Below, one piece after another: positions 6,089 through 62,505 of a stretch of DNA of 64,000 bases; position 1 is the stretch's first letter; each line of letters starts with the position of its first letter. Made by a program: the position numbers and the translations under genes. Source of the stretch: an uncultured Trueperaceae bacterium. Its GTDB lineage: Bacteria > Deinococcota > Deinococci > Deinococcales > Trueperaceae. Under the pieces are notes generated by a model that had not been told where the DNA came from, ran no database searches, and saw only the letters and a program-made list of their open reading frames with translations. The stretch covers positions 128,001-192,000 of the forward strand of contig CAWCXJ010000013.1 in the NCBI GenBank assembly GCA_963799485.1, given 5' to 3'.

Positions 6089-6836
6089 GGTGCGCGTGAA
6101 CACAGTAGACCCGGTAGAGAAACGCGAACCGGTTTTACAAGTCGAAAACGTCGATTTGGGTTACGACGAACTGTTGGTCGTGATGGGCGTGAGCTTGACC
6201 ATCCATCAGGGCGAATTAGTCGGGCTCGTCGGCGGCAACGGCAGCGGCAAATCGACCATTTTACGGGCTGTTTCGGGGATGATTCAGCCTCGTGCCGGAC
6301 GTATTCTCTTTGCAGGTCAAGAGGTCCGCAAACGCAGCCCGCACCAGATGGCAGAGCTTGGTATCGCACACGTCCCGATGGGACGGCAGCTGTTTCCCAA
6401 CATGACGGTTGCCCAAAACCTCGCGCTCGGCGCGTACCTGCCGGAACCGCGCCGGAACCGCACCGAAAGTCTGGGGCACGTCTATGAACTCTTCCCCGAT
6501 CTGCACGACAAACGCAAAATCATGGCGGGTAACCTTTCGGGTGGGCAGCAGCAGATGATTGCCATCGGGCGGGCGCTGATGCTCCGGCCCAAAATGCTCA
6601 TCATGGACGAGCCCTCGCTAGGGCTTGCGCCGCGCCTCGTCAAAGAGGTGATGCAGGCCATTCGCCGCGTGTCGCAGACCGGCCTGCCGATTTTACTGGT
6701 TGAACAAAACGTCAAACAGGTGTTGCAAATTTCCGACCGGACGTATGTGCTCGAGAACGGCAAACTCGTAATCGAGGGGCCGTCGGGAGAGCTTATGGGC
6801 AACGAAAAGATCAAGCGGGCGTATCTAGGGCTTTAG
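6081..6836 (+). CDS. livF: BCAA ABC ATP-binding protein
   Basis: GGNGSGKST, LSGGQQQM, MDEPSLGLAP, VEQN. Confidence 0.93.
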   Translation: MTEVRVNTVDPVEKREPVLQVENVDLGYDELLVVMGVSLTIHQGELVGLVGGNGSGKSTILRAVSGMIQPRAGRILFAGQEVRKRSPHQMAELGIAHVPMGRQLFPNMTVAQNLALGAYLPEPRRNRTESLGHVYELFPDLHDKRKIMAGNLSGGQQQMIAIGRALMLRPKMLIMDEPSLGLAPRLVKEVMQAIRRVSQTGLPILLVEQNVKQVLQISDRTYVLENGKLVIEGPSGELMGNEKIKRAYLGL

Positions 6837-6861
6837 ACTTGGTTCTGACCGTTGGACAAAG

Positions 6862-6955
6862 AGGCTCGAGCTAAAACTCGGGCCTTTACTCAACTCTCCA
6901 CCCGGCTTGTGGCCTTAAAACGTGCTATCCAACCCCTGATCTAAAGATCGGGTTG
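6862..6955. terminator. Two hairpins between the convergent livF and peptide-binding protein genes
   Basis: AGGCTCGAG-ctaaaa-CTCGGGCCT followed by TT at 6862-6887; CCTGATCT-aa-AGATCGGG at about 6935-6952. Confidence 0.55.
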
Positions 6956-58188: not shown

Positions 58189-58262
58189 CCCGGAGATTTC
58201 GCAGGGGCTCGAGCTAAAAAAGTACGCCCCAAACTTTCAGGGCGTACCGGAGCGCTTTGACC

Positions 58263-59756
58263 TCAGCGGCAATATGTGCTTAGCGTATTCTCTAACGTGA
58301 TGTTCAGGCCGGAGGCAGGCAGCGCCGTCGGCGTCGGGTCGGTCTTAAAAAACGCCATCGGTGAGGTGACGCTCGGTGGGACGCGGGCGCAGCGCGGAGC
58401 CGGTAGGGTAAAGTCGAGCGCCGTAAACACGCTTAGCACAGGAGCCGCGAACGAGGTTCCGGCAATGCTGATTTGCGGATAGACACGCCAGCCGTCTATG
58501 CGTGGGTCGTAAGCCGTAAGTCTGAAGTAGCCACCGGGCAAGATGATTTCTCCTGTGTTCGAGTATTCGTCAGGAACGGCAGATGCAGAAGCTAGATTGT
58601 GTGCGCTGACGCTGACGAACTCCGACCAATAGCCCGGATAGAGTGAATACGGCAGCGCGTAGTTCCCCGAAGCTGCCAGATAGGTGATGTCGGCATCCCC
58701 AGAGTCGGTCGTACCTTTTAGCAACGGGTCGGTTTCTTCGTTTATGGGCGTTGTTAAGATGCTGGTCAACTGCTCTCTAAACTCAGCCGGGTCGAGACCA
58801 CTCTTGTCTCTGTTCTCCTCAAATATCGCATCTCGGTATTCCTCAAAAGTCAGGTCCAACTGATTTTCGTCTTTGTCACCTGATGCAGCCCTAAAGTCGG
58901 TACGCACGCTGCACGGCACGAGCCCAAAACTCAGGTTTACGGCAAAGCGCTTGACATCTTGTTCCACCAGTTTTCGGATAGTCGCCTGAAGCCGTTCACC
59001 AATAATGCCGGTGTTAAAGTTCTGTGTATCGAGCGCAACAACGACCACATTCAGCTTTGTAAAGTCAGCAATAGGGACACGGATAATCTCTTCGCTGTCA
59101 GAAACAGAGACCTCGAGGCTCCCGAATTTAGGGTGGGCATCTTCAGCAGCTAGAAGCGCGAGCGTGTGGTTAAAAACGAGTGCGCCGTGTGAGTATTGAC
59201 CTGTAGCCTCGAGCCCCTCCGCCTCCGCTTCGGTTGCGCCGCTCATGAGGCCAGCTAAGGTCGGACCGCGTTGCTGGTCGAGAAAGTACACACCCGGTTT
59301 GCCGAGTCGGGTATCTCCGCCAAAGTTGTCAAAGACGATAATCGCAGCACGTTCGTCGAAGCCGGGCTTGGCTGCGGCGAACATTTGTGTCCCGATTGCG
59401 AAAGGGTTGCCACGTAGGATTGATACCCCGGTTTTATCTACGGGGTTAGGAAATACCGCTAAACCACCGATAGAGCCTGCGGCGTGAGCGCCTTGCCCTA
59501 CAATTTCCTTTCCATTGACCGGACAGTTGCCCTCCTTTGCTCTGATAAGCCCTTCGCCGCTAATCGGAGAGGTCAATATGTCAGGGTTGAACTCTATAGC
59601 TGGACGGATACCTTGAGTTGGTATCTCCTGCTGCGGCTTAGCTTCAGTACTTTCTGCTAAACGGGTTTCCTGAGCTGGCGTTCGCGGTTGAGAACCTGGA
59701 ATACAGCCGACAAGGGTTGCGAGTAAAATGACTTCTAGCCATACAGTTCGTTTCAT
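58263..59756 (-). CDS. Lipoprotein with a divergent S8 (subtilisin-like) peptidase domain
   Basis: RBS GGGAGG; lipobox LVGC at Cys18; IIVFD, SHGALV, AASGN, GTSFAAP. Confidence 0.8.
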   Translation of the reverse strand: MKRTVWLEVILLATLVGCIPGSQPRTPAQETRLAESTEAKPQQEIPTQGIRPAIEFNPDILTSPISGEGLIRAKEGNCPVNGKEIVGQGAHAAGSIGGLAVFPNPVDKTGVSILRGNPFAIGTQMFAAAKPGFDERAAIIVFDNFGGDTRLGKPGVYFLDQQRGPTLAGLMSGATEAEAEGLEATGQYSHGALVFNHTLALLAAEDAHPKFGSLEVSVSDSEEIIRVPIADFTKLNVVVVALDTQNFNTGIIGERLQATIRKLVEQDVKRFAVNLSFGLVPCSVRTDFRAASGDKDENQLDLTFEEYRDAIFEENRDKSGLDPAEFREQLTSILTTPINEETDPLLKGTTDSGDADITYLAASGNYALPYSLYPGYWSEFVSVSAHNLASASAVPDEYSNTGEIILPGGYFRLTAYDPRIDGWRVYPQISIAGTSFAAPVLSVFTALDFTLPAPRCARVPPSVTSPMAFFKTDPTPTALPASGLNITLENTLSTYCR

Positions 59757-59793
59757 CTTTCCTCCCACTCAACGCTAATAACCTACCGTCAAC

Positions 59794-62373
59794 TCAGTGT
59801 GAACTTTTTTCGCCGTTAAGTTCAAACAAAATTTGCTGCACTGCATCTACTCTTGCTTGAGCGTTGTTTTCTTCGTAAAGTTCTAGTGCTTCGCGCAAAT
59901 AACCCTCTGCCTCTTGCTGTTTCCTCGCATCTGCGTACATCTCTCCTAGTTCGTGCAAAGCATAGGCGCGCCAAAGCTGGTTGTCCCTAGAGGTCGCAAT
60001 CTCGAGGGCTTGCAATCTCAAAGCGACAGCTTCTTGAAAATGTCCTAGTTTTCGCTTGGCCTCGCCTAAGTTCAATAACGCATGAAATGATATATTATCT
60101 GCTCCTGTTTGGTCAGTTTCGAGCATCTGTCTGAGTTTAATTGCTAGTTCGACAGTTTCTTGACTAAACCGCTCCATTGCTCTCCAATTTTTTCCTGACC
60201 AAGCGACGTAACTGCGATGTTGCAAAATAAATCCCAACATAAGGTCATCGTCTGCCTGTCTAGCGATTTGATAGGCACGCTCAAAATCCCGTTCGGATGA
60301 TTGTCCAAGATGGTGGCGTGTAATTGCACAGAGACTCGTCAGCGTAGCCTCTCTTGATGGATTACGAATAAGTCTTGCCAAACGCGCACCTTCCTGATAA
60401 GCAGCTAAGGCTTTGTCGTATTGGTGATACAGAACACGGTGGGCATCTCCCAACCTTCCTGCAAGGTAGTGCGCCCGCTCGAGCATCCCCAACTCTTTGG
60501 CCCAAGCAAGGGCCACTTCTAACAACTTCAGCGAACGCGGCGAATGTCCCCTTGCCGAAAAGTAGGCGTCACCAATGACCAGCTGTGCCATCACCTCGAC
60601 CAAAACTTTACGCTGACCCTGGTCACGGGCGGTCTCTAACGCGCCCACAAGGTTGGGCATCTCTGCGCCCAACAGCTCGAAGGTGTGGACGTTCTCCGAG
60701 ACGAATGTCCGGCACGCCCGCAAGACGCTTCCGGCGCGGAGGGTGCTGTTATGACGCGCGAAGCTGTAAGCGAGGTCGTGCAGCAGGTAGCGCACCACGT
60801 CGCTGCCGGGACTCGTGCGGCGTTCGGCGAGGGCTTGGGTCTGGAGTTCGTTCAGGGCGGTTTCGGTCTCGCCTGTGTCCCGGCGGAGGCAGAGGGCGAG
60901 AAACTCGGGCGTGACGGCGCTCGAGCCCAATGCCCCGACCGCTAAAAAGGCGTCGTAAGCAGCGTCTGAGAGGGTCTCCAAGCTGGCGGCTAACAGGGCG
61001 CTGATACTCTCGCGCTCTTCGTCGCGCCAGCTTTTGGGGGCCGCGAGGGTGTGAGGCGCACCGGCAAGTCGCGCCAGCACGTTTTGCGGCGTTGCCCCGC
61101 CCCGGAGCTGGGTTCCGGCAAGCCTCAGCGCGAACGGGTGGTCGCTCAGGACGTGGCAGAGTTCGTCGGCGCTCGCTTCGGGTAGTGTGGTTTCAGCGGT
61201 GGCGTCCAGAAGTTTGCGGGCATCATCACGTGCCAAGCCGCCGAGTTCGGCGCGGGTGAACCCGGAGAGGCGTTGTCTCGAGGTTGCCAGAACCGGCAAC
61301 CCTCCAGGGAGTGCGGTGCAGAGTGCGCCGACTGCCTGCTTGTTCCATACGTCATCGATGACAAGAAGAGCCGTGCGGCCTAGAGCCGTCGTCAATTCTT
61401 TCGGGCCGCTTCCGGAAACGCCCAAAGCTTGCCGCGCCGCGTCCAACAGTTCAGCCTCGCTGCTCCGGCCCGCGTGGAGCCACAGCACGTCACCGGTATC
61501 TAAAGTGCGTGCGGCAAATTCAGCCGCCAGCGCGGTTTTGCCGACGCCGCCAAACCCGTGCAATACGGTAGGTTTCTGCTTGACCTCAGCCTCGAGCTTT
61601 TCCAACGCTGCCCCCCGACCGATAAGCTCCGCCGCGCGGCCCGGTACGGTGTCGCCGGGATGAAACAGGGTACCCTGTGCGGTTGCGCCTTCTGCGCCGA
61701 CGAGTTCCGCACGGAGTTTGCGGGTTTCGGCTGAGGGTTCGCCGCCGAGTTCGGTGAGAGCGGCAGTAAGCCGCTCAAATGCCCCGCGCACACCCTCGGC
61801 GTCGCCGCTTTCGTGTTCCAGACGCATCAAAAGCCGGTAGACGGGTTCATAGCTGGGCTCGAGGCCAATCAGTCTACGCGTCGTTTGTTTTGCTTTTGAA
61901 AGCTGACCTTCATCGCGAAAATGTTGGGCCACACCCCAGAGTGCCCGACTGACTAGCTCGGCGGTCTCTTGCCGCGCCTCCCCCAACCACTCGTCAAAGG
62001 CGAGCGTTGGCGTTTTGAGGCTGTGAAGCAGTACCAGGTCATCGTTTTCTAAGGGTAGTACGTCCTCAAAGTCCGCTTTTTCGACGGCGTTTCGCAGCGC
62101 TTCAACGTCGTTCGTCGCTGTTAAGCTGACGGGTTCGTCATCGTGCAGCCAACTGTCAGCGCCCGGTAGCTGCCGGATTTTGTAGAGCGCAGTGCGTAAA
62201 TTCGCACTTTTGCCCGGCCCCCATAAAAGTTCGGCGAGGTCGTCGCGGGGCGTTGCACCGGCCAGGGCGAGGTAGGCGACGAGCGCGCAGTGGCGTGGTT
62301 GCAACGTCAAAGGCTGCCCCCGCCAATGGACTTTAGGGACGCCTAAAAGGGTCAGCTCGAGCTTGCCTTGCAC
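59794..62373 (-). CDS. SARP/AfsR-like regulator with wHTH-BTAD, NB-ARC (STAND) and TPR domains
   Basis: LTLLGVP...LVAYLAL...RDDLAELLW; EPSYEPVYRLLM; Walker A GFGGVGKT; Walker B LLVIDDVW; TSR; HPFAL; LLHDL; TPR-like C-terminus. Confidence 0.9.
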   Translation of the reverse strand: MQGKLELTLLGVPKVHWRGQPLTLQPRHCALVAYLALAGATPRDDLAELLWGPGKSANLRTALYKIRQLPGADSWLHDDEPVSLTATNDVEALRNAVEKADFEDVLPLENDDLVLLHSLKTPTLAFDEWLGEARQETAELVSRALWGVAQHFRDEGQLSKAKQTTRRLIGLEPSYEPVYRLLMRLEHESGDAEGVRGAFERLTAALTELGGEPSAETRKLRAELVGAEGATAQGTLFHPGDTVPGRAAELIGRGAALEKLEAEVKQKPTVLHGFGGVGKTALAAEFAARTLDTGDVLWLHAGRSSEAELLDAARQALGVSGSGPKELTTALGRTALLVIDDVWNKQAVGALCTALPGGLPVLATSRQRLSGFTRAELGGLARDDARKLLDATAETTLPEASADELCHVLSDHPFALRLAGTQLRGGATPQNVLARLAGAPHTLAAPKSWRDEERESISALLAASLETLSDAAYDAFLAVGALGSSAVTPEFLALCLRRDTGETETALNELQTQALAERRTSPGSDVVRYLLHDLAYSFARHNSTLRAGSVLRACRTFVSENVHTFELLGAEMPNLVGALETARDQGQRKVLVEVMAQLVIGDAYFSARGHSPRSLKLLEVALAWAKELGMLERAHYLAGRLGDAHRVLYHQYDKALAAYQEGARLARLIRNPSREATLTSLCAITRHHLGQSSERDFERAYQIARQADDDLMLGFILQHRSYVAWSGKNWRAMERFSQETVELAIKLRQMLETDQTGADNISFHALLNLGEAKRKLGHFQEAVALRLQALEIATSRDNQLWRAYALHELGEMYADARKQQEAEGYLREALELYEENNAQARVDAVQQILFELNGEKSSH

Positions 62374-62505
62374 ACCCTATTATCATGAAAATGTCACATT
62401 TGTCCAGGCTTGGCTATAGGTGCCGGCAAATCTCTATGACGATTTTATGACAGTAAAGCGCCGTGAGCGCTTCGGAGCGCTTGAACGAGTCGGCAAGCTA
62501 AAGCT

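Follow-up and report, generated by a model that had tools for sequence, protein, structure and literature searches.

The locus analysed here lies on the reverse strand of a 64,000-nucleotide window (positions 128,001 to 192,000 of contig CAWCXJ010000013.1, here C13, of assembly GCA_963799485.1) from an uncultured bacterium of the Trueperaceae. The source genome comprises 3.66 Mb in 15 contigs, with 59% GC and an estimated contamination of 4.63%. Two genes of the same orientation encode, in order, a regulator of the STAND class (signal transduction ATPases with numerous domains), named REG, and a lipoprotein that resembles the subtilases of peptidase family S8 (Table 1). A 1.1 kb tract of low GC content reaches from the TPR tail of REG across the 37-bp spacer to codon ~120 of the S8-like gene, with limits at REG residues ~620-650 and S8 residue ~125, and coincides with a mosaic zone seen across related loci. 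Taken as a whole, the AT-rich tract is on balance probably the compositional footprint of a hypervariable, polymorphic cassette that sets the specificity of sensor and protease. A preliminary description of the locus, made from the letters of the sequence, had given the coordinates and uninterrupted frame of the regulator (62373..59794, 859 residues, no stop), the start of the S8-like gene 37 bp past the regulator stop and the domain order BTAD-NB-ARC-TPR, all of which were reproduced, the three domains by Pfam and by the profile match to an AfsR chain given below.

Table 1. Features of the two-gene unit in window coordinates (aa, residues; GC3, GC content at third codon positions; RBS, ribosome-binding site).
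Feature	Position	Strand	Basis
Promoter-like site TGGACA-16-GATAAT	62379..62406	(-)	scan match 10/12
REG gene, wHTH-BTAD-NB-ARC-TPR, 859 aa	59794..62373	(-)	open reading frame, translation, Pfam, family profile
SARP head (winged-helix DNA-binding part + BTAD), aa 1-235	61669..62373	(-)	AfsR fragment profile match, Pfam BTAD
NB-ARC/NOD ATPase module, aa ~243-550	60724..61647	(-)	Pfam NB-ARC; NCBIfam FxSxx_TPR over 243-495
Junction block, aa 595-646	60436..60591	(-)	dense invariant columns in 30-sequence family alignment
AT-rich hypervariable TPR tail, aa 631-859	59797..60483	(-)	GC, tail identities, breakpoints, tree tests
Spacer, 37 bp, with RBS GGGAGG	59757..59793	(-)	sequence
S8-like lipoprotein gene, 497 aa, from ATG 59756	58263..59756	(-)	translation
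Variable AT-richer 5′ part of S8-like gene, aa 1-120	59397..59756	(-)	GC3 0.417, low identity in close pairs
Catalytic domain of S8-like protein	58266..59396	(-)	conserved residues, model core
Catalytic codons D, H, N, S	59328-59330, 59187-59189, 58662-58664, 58452-58454	(-)	codons verified
Intrinsic-terminator-like hairpin, 12-bp stem then T run	58221..58248	(-)	15 nt past S8 stop

Organization of the two-gene unit

The −10 element of the promoter-like site ends 5 nt ahead of the GTG start codon of REG, so that the REG mRNA may be leaderless. The −35 element, spacer and −10 element are almost invariant in three Truepera loci, and the sequence farther upstream diverges; no direct repeats upstream of the −35 element were conserved across the three aligned promoters. 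Within 62374-62420, the promoter spacer is fully kept in the same three loci and contains a small palindrome (ATGTGACAT), perhaps an operator. A terminator scan found none between REG and the S8-like gene, and the hairpin after the second gene marks the 3′ end of the two-gene unit. Given the promoter before REG, the lack of an inter-gene terminator, the terminator after the S8-like gene and the conservation of promoter core and spacer, the two genes apparently form one transcription unit.

The 37-bp spacer and the final REG codons were better conserved among the three Truepera loci than the adjoining coding sequence, and the spacer may act in initiating translation of the protease gene or in regulating it. 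In T. radiovictrix the spacer between the genes (L015:6553-6951) measures 399 bp, against 34-66 bp in other orthologues, and belongs to the low-GC tract; its opposite strand holds an open reading frame (ORF) of 74 aa (6708-6932) with a signal-peptide-like stretch, which may be chance. The neighbouring genes in the window are of housekeeping type (epimerase, HAD phosphatase, oxidoreductase). Within the window no short propeptide gene was found between or after the pair, and no Opp-type importer was shown adjoining it.

The regulator

By its profile matches, REG is an AfsR-like large SARP of the STAND class. Pfam matches were obtained for BTAD (residues 128-224, 25.5 bits, cut-off 22.1), NB-ARC (258-368, 25.0 bits, cut-off 23.5) and TPR_12 (765-835, E 8e-13), and the Pfam Trans_reg_C model left REG unmatched at E ≤0.01. 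A family profile (A2) was built from 30 REG family members; its positions 6-550 match residues 27-612 of AfsR chain 8k60_I (E 1e-20) and its positions 6-231 match the AfsR SARP fragment 8hvr_I (E 5e-4). The profile also matches Apaf-1, plant NLRs and consensus TPR proteins, with the TPR matches over 774-851.

The SARP head is host-like in composition (GC3 0.54-0.72). The P-loop GFGGVGKT corresponds to residues 273-280 and the Walker B pair DD to residues 340-341 (codons checked); G273, G275, G276, G278, K279 and T280 are invariant in 30 sequences, and D340 and D341 nearly so. The junction block is among the best-conserved stretches of the protein and sits where the variable zone begins, and the block of residues 601-680 was the one most identical to the window protein in most of 39 relatives. 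A unique peak of nucleotide identity at the junction was considered and rejected (mean 67%, with windows 511-540 and 451-480 higher).

The S8-like lipoprotein

The product of the second gene is predicted to be a divergent subtilase-like lipoprotein that has an intact D-H-N-S set and acts outside the cytoplasm. Its first 120 residues contain a signal peptide with lipobox LVGC, a disordered linker and the conserved islands QGIRP, GNCP and GGLAV.PNP. The lipobox (MKRTVWLEVILLATLVGC, read by eye) ends in a cysteine (C22 of P0002) conserved in ≥90% of sequences, and the pattern recurs in 22 aligned relatives. Residues D147, H194, N369 and S439 (P0002 numbering) do not vary among 15 aligned sequences and are also kept in 9 orthologues, so the catalytic residues named in the preliminary description are present, although the Pfam S8 score lies below its cut-off. 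Four further cysteines are invariant in the same alignment. The motifs VxDDF, SHGALV, AxGNY and GTSFAAP follow the subtilase order D-H-S plus oxyanion Asn, and the protein is a putative protease.

The match to Pfam Peptidase_S8 (PF00082) scored 19.0 bits (E 1e-3), under the gathering cut-off of 21.8, and that to the mycosin model TIGR03921 scored 15 bits against a cut-off of 279. The family is small, with 48 matches in 5.8 billion clusters, 7 of which were annotated PF00082. In the AlphaFold model, the predicted local distance difference test score (pLDDT) averages 69, the core (residues 121-470) is mostly confident, and values <50 occur at residues 19-60 and 83-101. Foldseek returned 18 matches at E ≤1e-3, and all among the matches listed were subtilases; the matches are weak (template modelling scores 0.16-0.46, high root-mean-square deviation, 10-16% identity to solved chains).

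The recorded protein for this gene (P0004, 58263-59384) has only 373 aa; it is 100% identical and covers 74% of the query. Its gene call starts internally and thereby loses the signal peptide and the AT-rich N-terminal region, which orthologues keep in frame.

Composition of the locus

GC content in 300-bp windows falls from 0.64-0.67 (60600-61650) to 0.44-0.47 (59550-60450). Total GC of REG is 0.628 over residues 1-630 and 0.470 over residues 631-859, the corresponding GC3 values are 0.689 and 0.406, and the drop is seen at all three codon positions. In the S8-like gene, the GC3 of the first 120 codons compares with 0.605 in the remainder. A step without a break in frame, and a lower GC in the lipoprotein gene, had been estimated by eye; computation bears out both. 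Among 907 ORFs of at least 400 aa in the genome, compared over adjacent 200-codon windows, the GC3 step of REG (0.36) ranks first (median 0.08, 99th percentile 0.28). Genome-wide, 313 of 36,467 windows of 600 bp (0.86%) have a GC ≤0.46.

The next GC3 steps in the same genome (0.34-0.35) were found at C4:103700-106969 (L098, a 1090-aa N6_N4 DNA methylase), C9:6879-9794 (L099, a 972-aa DUF1156/methyltransferase) and C7:104306-106342 (L097, a 679-aa ABC permease-containing ORF). Swapped recognition domains are well known among DNA methyltransferases, and one is a plausible parallel in the two methylases.

Rfam gave no match in the tract at E ≤0.1, Tandem Repeats Finder (TRF) reported 0 arrays in the locus, and the repeats of the locus are short and of chance size. 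A 22-nt repeat common to promoter and tail was taken as chance, being unconserved in two relatives and encoding a TPR motif. Contig pieces from four public runs, short and of low depth, equal the window with 0 differences on both sides of the step, and these low-depth contigs held no variant alleles or joints at the locus. No RNA run was listed among the public runs with the locus.

Composition in related loci

GC profiles were computed for 47 distinct loci; a metagenome scan with the N-terminal part of REG (N-part) gave two loci, of which only L073 was useful. The same dip is present in 9 of the 47 (G000, G005, L073, G002, G008, G057, G012, G128a and G056a), from at least four genera, and reaches from ~230 codons before the REG stop to ~100 codons into the protease gene; two more (G056b and L066, the latter the same locus as L094) have a weak dip. 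In the nine dip loci the tail GC3 is 0.33-0.61 against 0.50-0.98 in blocks of the N-part, and in T. radiovictrix (G002) a tail of 0.40-0.46 stands beside 0.86-0.98. The dip is missing from very GC-rich relatives (tail GC3 0.84-0.98 in G015, G037, G047, G068 and G123) and from GC-poor ones. The REG gene of G055 (L076 = L025) has one in-frame TGA, ends at profile position 795 of 874 and is followed by a 247-bp gap before the S8-like gene; this copy, which may be decaying, has no dip (tail GC3 0.70-0.73).

Where residues are identical, synonymous codons agree no more often in the tract than elsewhere (25-67% between G000 and G002), and within the Truepera trio the proportion of synonymous differences (pS) is 0.58-0.70 in the tail against 0.41-0.51 in the N-part. 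The unraised synonymous identity and the higher tail pS indicate that the tract is no conserved nucleotide element, and that at silent sites it is older or changes faster than the chassis. The ratio of nonsynonymous to synonymous change (dN/dS) of the tail in the trio is low, 0.03-0.15. Since tract GC3 hardly follows the host, we tentatively read the tract as a pool of cassettes with a composition of its own that moves between lineages.

Mosaic structure of the family

Close pairs were defined by an N-part identity of at least 80% (n=30 protein pairs). In 12 of the 30 the tails are just 44-60% identical, with a ratio of tail to N-part identity <0.7 (N-part/tail, for example, 95/59, 95/57, 94/52 and 92/44), and these pairs fall into four groups (P0066/69; P0059/60/62/63; P0079/80/82/83; P0071/75). 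Other pairs of like N-part divergence keep the tail (P0059/P0060, 94/87), and in P0052/P0056 the tail is more alike than the N-part (93 vs 86). In 30-aa windows, four low-tail pairs show 87-100% identity up to residue 630 and 23-73% after it, and two further pairs break at ~571 and ~661 instead. The family break at residue ~631 coincides with the GC step; identity recovers at protease residues ~90-150, and the limits of the mosaic match those of the AT-rich tract.

Trees were built from 33 full-length proteins after seven partial rows had been dropped (P0057, P0076, P0078, P0081, P0085, P0086 and P0087). By approximately unbiased (AU) tests, the tail data reject the N-part clades P0059/60/62/63 (p 2e-4) and P0080/82 (p 2e-10) and keep P0066/69 (p 0.11), and the N-part data reject the tail clade P0058+P0062 (p 8e-58). 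The separate trees of the two halves, which the preliminary description had linked to the idea of a swapped tail, are thus incongruent across the family.

The variable zone extends into the protease genes. Between the proteases partnered with P0062 and P0063, identity is 51% at residues 1-130, 81% at 131-260, 91% at 261-400 and 97% at 401-501; two more protease pairs behave likewise, giving 49-55% overall for residues 1-130 and 77-97% for later parts. Windows up to S8 residue 120 are 36-72% identical where the C-terminal parts (C-parts) reach 73-100%. The nearest module by S8 N-terminus is also the nearest by tail in 7 of 20 modules and the nearest by N-part in 2 of 20; when modules are matched by S8 C-part, the result agrees with that by N-part in 8 of the 20 and with that by tail in 3. 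Judged by tail (74%) and by protease N-terminus (69%), contigs c9985 and c7320 are reciprocal best matches, but the closest sequences to their N-parts and protease C-parts are on c25776 and c6730 (c25776 for c9985). The unit exchanged would thus usually be the TPR tail together with ~100-130 N-terminal protease residues. In one pair at the DNA level (G012/G128a, same genus) nucleotide identity is 72-84% in the N-part, 48-66% in the tail and ~35-40% over the whole S8 gene and both flanks, so that the entire tail-plus-protease differs. The earlier idea that sensor repeats and protease are exchanged together hence stands for the tail with the protease N-terminus, and not for the whole protease, which differs in this one pair.

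Genus g33 includes one pair with the tail more alike than the N-part (81 vs 71%), and 2-4 REG-type copies were counted in the Trueperaceae genomes G060, G061, G062, G112, G114, G056 and G128 (loci L079-L096), with up to four in G060 and G112. Mosaicism therefore extends beyond the clade with the GC dip.

The tail of the window copy

The window protein has the same five nearest relatives for both halves, at 85-90% identity in the N-part and 77-80% in the tail, and across 39 relatives its ratio of tail to N-part identity is 0.67-1.17. It falls in the same 6- and 12-member clades in both trees (support 100/100 for the N-part, 97/96 for the tail). A search with residues 631-859 for a closer tail on another chassis found none; it gave 30 hits, the best at 82%, all to the same relatives. 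Judged by these comparisons, chassis and cassette of the window copy have stayed together at least since its lineage parted from the nearest sampled relatives. A tail swapped onto the chassis, as first proposed, is supported across the family, with a break at residue ~631, and not for a recent swap in the window's own copy, whose clades are congruent. Paralogues with a near-identical N-terminus and other tails, envisaged in the same proposal, are absent from the source genome, as are silent cassettes; that genome holds one copy and a weak TPR match at 27% identity. Template repeats or silent copies, of the kind used by diversity-generating retroelements or cassette switching, were likewise not found in it.

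Association of the protease with STAND-TPR sensors

Forty-nine genome loci with a relative of the S8-like gene were collected from Trueperaceae, Deinococcaceae and Chloroflexota Anaerolineae; five had too little upstream DNA. In 34 of the 44 assessable loci the S8-like gene is immediately preceded, in the same orientation, by a STAND-TPR gene, an observation that upholds the description of the protease as a cognate partner. The upstream gene is an NB-ARC-TPR gene matched by the REG profile in 27 of the 44 and another large ORF in seven; the six of these that were scanned have the architecture Guanylate_cyc-AAA_16-TPR, and the seventh (L054), cut by a contig end, was matched in its TPR part alone. 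In one locus (L046) another S8 gene separates the STAND gene from the S8-like gene, and nine loci have no STAND gene within the upstream DNA examined. The order in L046 (1391-3832, 4620-5981; Trueperaceae) is REG, an 813-aa ORF matching Peptidase_S8 and the S8-like gene, an arrangement of tandem proteases. In four scanned Chloroflexota NB-ARC-TPR proteins, DUF4062 (three) or a protein kinase (one) replaces the SARP head.

Since the protease accompanies the TPR sensor irrespective of the output domain, gene order argues that it may work on the sensing or input side and not merely as a target of a transcription factor. The data do not point to control of the lipoprotein by the regulator, also suggested at first: the pair appears to share a transcript, and S8-like genes are found as well behind STAND-TPR genes whose products are not transcription factors.

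Proposed mechanism and alternative explanations

If the tract is a specificity cassette, its history would differ from that of the flanking chassis, with the SARP/NB-ARC part on one side and the catalytic domain of the protease on the other, and it would be reshuffled among Trueperaceae by homologous recombination that breaks beside the junction block. The exported protease would make a cue, or carry it in its variable N-terminal ~120 residues; the variable TPR tail would recognise the cue, its binding would release the NB-ARC switch, and the SARP head would then activate transcription. Recognition specific to a lineage, akin to that of 'pherotypes', would follow from tails and protease N-termini that vary to match each other. 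Anatomy, gene linkage, mosaic pattern and the coincidence of mosaic zone and GC tract are direct observations; co-transcription, protease activity, a ligand relation between protease and TPR tail, any role in peptide signalling or conflict and the reason for the lasting AT-richness are interpretations built on them. A bolder form of the proposal holds that STAND-TPR protein and subtilase-like lipoprotein make up an undescribed system of Deinococcota and Chloroflexota with four outputs, that the variable protease N-terminus, be it signal peptide, linker or pro-region, is or yields the cue and that the AT-rich cassette is passed between lineages as 'pherotypes'; this we regard as doubtful.

Several points weigh against the cassette interpretation. 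The ligand link needs an unseen step, because the protease is extracytoplasmic and the sensor cytoplasmic. As both halves of the window copy share their nearest relatives, the swap is deduced from relatives and is not seen in the window copy. The clades put to AU tests were picked with both trees, which were 'quick' builds, already in view, and the metagenome REG and S8 partners were paired from equal-sized contigs and not seen side by side. The tails of P0052/P0056 are 93-94% alike, yet their protease N-termini are 63-64% identical, so tail and protease N-terminus are not strictly co-inherited and a direct fit of one to the other is weakened. In almost every close pair, including those with matching tails, conservation is lowest at the protease N-terminus, and part of this variability may reflect weak constraint on a disordered linker. 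Positive selection is not supported, since tail dN/dS is low. No sampled tail of a foreign lineage is unusually close to the G002 tail at the DNA level, and no donor emerged. The low GC3 has outlasted near-saturated synonymous change, for which exchange alone is insufficient; a lasting local constraint on the GC of the tract may also act.

Among the alternatives, the pair could be a conflict (immune-type) system, with an NLR-like sensor whose TPR tail is in an arms race with phages or competitors and with the protease as effector or accessory. We hold this to be unlikely. The architecture, in which a STAND NTPase ends in a variable TPR sensor, the sister modules with heads typical of conflict systems (cyclase, kinase, DUF4062) and the several copies per genome would suit such a role, and hypervariable repeat sensors are known in fungal NLRs (PMC4986451, in the part available). 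PADLOC, however, gives REG only the generic PDLC01169 'TPR' (E 3e-9) and the protease nothing, the head is a transcription factor homologous to AfsR, the neighbours are housekeeping genes, an exported lipoprotein protease would be odd as an abortive-infection effector, and the low tail dN/dS does not fit an arms race. A search by term in two STAND surveys (PMC7159879, PMC13581612) did not find the pair.

Likewise improbable is a locally selected property of the DNA or RNA as the source of the AT-richness, with tail variability a side effect of weak protein constraint. Candidates would be an internal promoter or regulatory region for the protease, a tract for nucleoid proteins or slow-translation codons for TPR folding. 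Low GC3 at the same place in the nine loci despite near-saturated synonymous sites, two weak promoter-like sites inside the tail (60087-60122) and the almost invariant spacer ahead of the protease gene speak for it. AT-richness is nevertheless unneeded for the module, because the five high-GC relatives and G055 keep the pair without the dip; synonymous codon identity is unraised, Rfam finds no match, and 1.1 kb far exceeds the size of a promoter. Weak constraint would also leave the tree conflicts, and the contrast of 94/87 and 94/52 pairs, unexplained.

Decidedly less probable is a single old chimera, formed when a tail and protease 5′ end entered a Truepera-related ancestor once from a low-GC donor and since unameliorated, with no ongoing exchange or function. 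In its favour, the dip occurs in only one clade of the family, that of the window's closest relatives, the shift in composition affects every codon position, as foreign DNA would show, and for the window and most relatives tail identity tracks that of the N-part. Synonymous codons of G000 and G002, however, agree in as few as 25-67%, and pS is 0.41-0.70 within the genus; with such high synonymous divergence amelioration should be far advanced, yet G002 keeps its low tail beside a GC-rich N-part. Tree conflicts and sharp breaks in four groups of close relatives imply repeated exchange. An assembly or binning artefact, a chimeric contig within REG, might be suspected from the 15 contigs and the estimated contamination and has a negligible chance, because the same step recurs in the orthologues of the single-contig, complete chromosomes G002 and G008; the unbroken frame and the pieces of four public runs that match both sides also oppose it.

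Relation to known systems

AfsR activates the small neighbouring gene afsS and is phosphorylated by AfsK. AfsR of Streptomyces coelicolor (PDB 8k60, 8hvr) has the same order of SARP head, BTAD, NB-ARC and C-terminal TPR as REG, and the T. radiovictrix orthologue of REG is annotated 'Transcriptional regulator, SARP'. REG differs from AfsR in its phylum, Deinococcota, in the subtilase-like lipoprotein gene 37 bp downstream and in its hypervariable AT-rich tail, a feature not described for AfsR in the literature examined.

RRNPP signalling includes Rap-Phr, NprR-NprX, PlcR-PapR and PrgX, with pheromones cut from lipoprotein signal peptides. There, as here, the gene of a cytoplasmic TPR receptor is followed by that of an exported partner, and both co-diversify into specificity groups; the Rap chain 8rte_A gave a weak, generic TPR match to the REG family profile (E 3e-4). 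Unlike these receptors, REG is a STAND ATPase with a SARP head, and its partner is a 497-aa protease and not a short propeptide. The agr (agrB-agrD-agrC) and comQXP loci resemble the unit in having a hypervariable zone that crosses gene borders between conserved flanks, here from REG residue 631 to S8 residue ~120. Their proteins are unrelated, and they are not known to have a composition step of comparable size; a literature search on pherotype loci and GC content gave nothing relevant among the matches listed.

With Avs-type antiphage STAND proteins and fungal NLRs (TPR/WD/ANK) the family shares a STAND NTPase with a variable C-terminal repeat sensor. It differs from both in the lack of a match to Avs or another specific defence model and in its transcription-factor output, and from fungal NLRs in having no near-identical internal repeats that would drive repeat shuffling (0 TRF arrays).

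Each part thus has known counterparts, among AfsR-like STAND regulators, subtilases and polymorphic specificity cassettes. The literature searched, so far as the sources were available, describes neither the combination of the two genes, nor its occurrence with four types of output, nor the footprint in composition; no account of an S8 lipoprotein that partners a SARP or STAND-TPR gene was found there, PMC7159879 and PMC13581612 (searched by term) included, and PMC3564903, in the part available, concerns another, CheY-SARP protein.

The ligands of bacterial STAND or NLR-like regulators such as AfsR are largely unknown, and a partner that is kept across four output domains and whose N-terminus varies with the tail gives a testable lead to what such sensors read; the cultured type strain Truepera radiovictrix has the same pair and the same GC step. 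If the proposal is true, one sensing pair would be wired to SARP transcription, cyclic nucleotide synthesis, protein phosphorylation and a DUF4062 head, and an NLR-like receptor, supplied by a protease dedicated to making its ligand, would let cells signal to one another and recognise kin or self. A GC3 step within a gene can flag a specificity cassette of separate history, and the tract, with GC3 0.33-0.61 in hosts of 0.5 to >0.9, is a test case for exchange, mutation bias and biased gene conversion.

The S8-like protein shares the D-H-S order and oxyanion Asn with MEROPS S8 members (pro-Tk-subtilisin, subtilisin BPN′, PatG/PagA), and is set apart from typical subtilases by its strong divergence, a long insert between His and Asn and its lipoprotein anchor.

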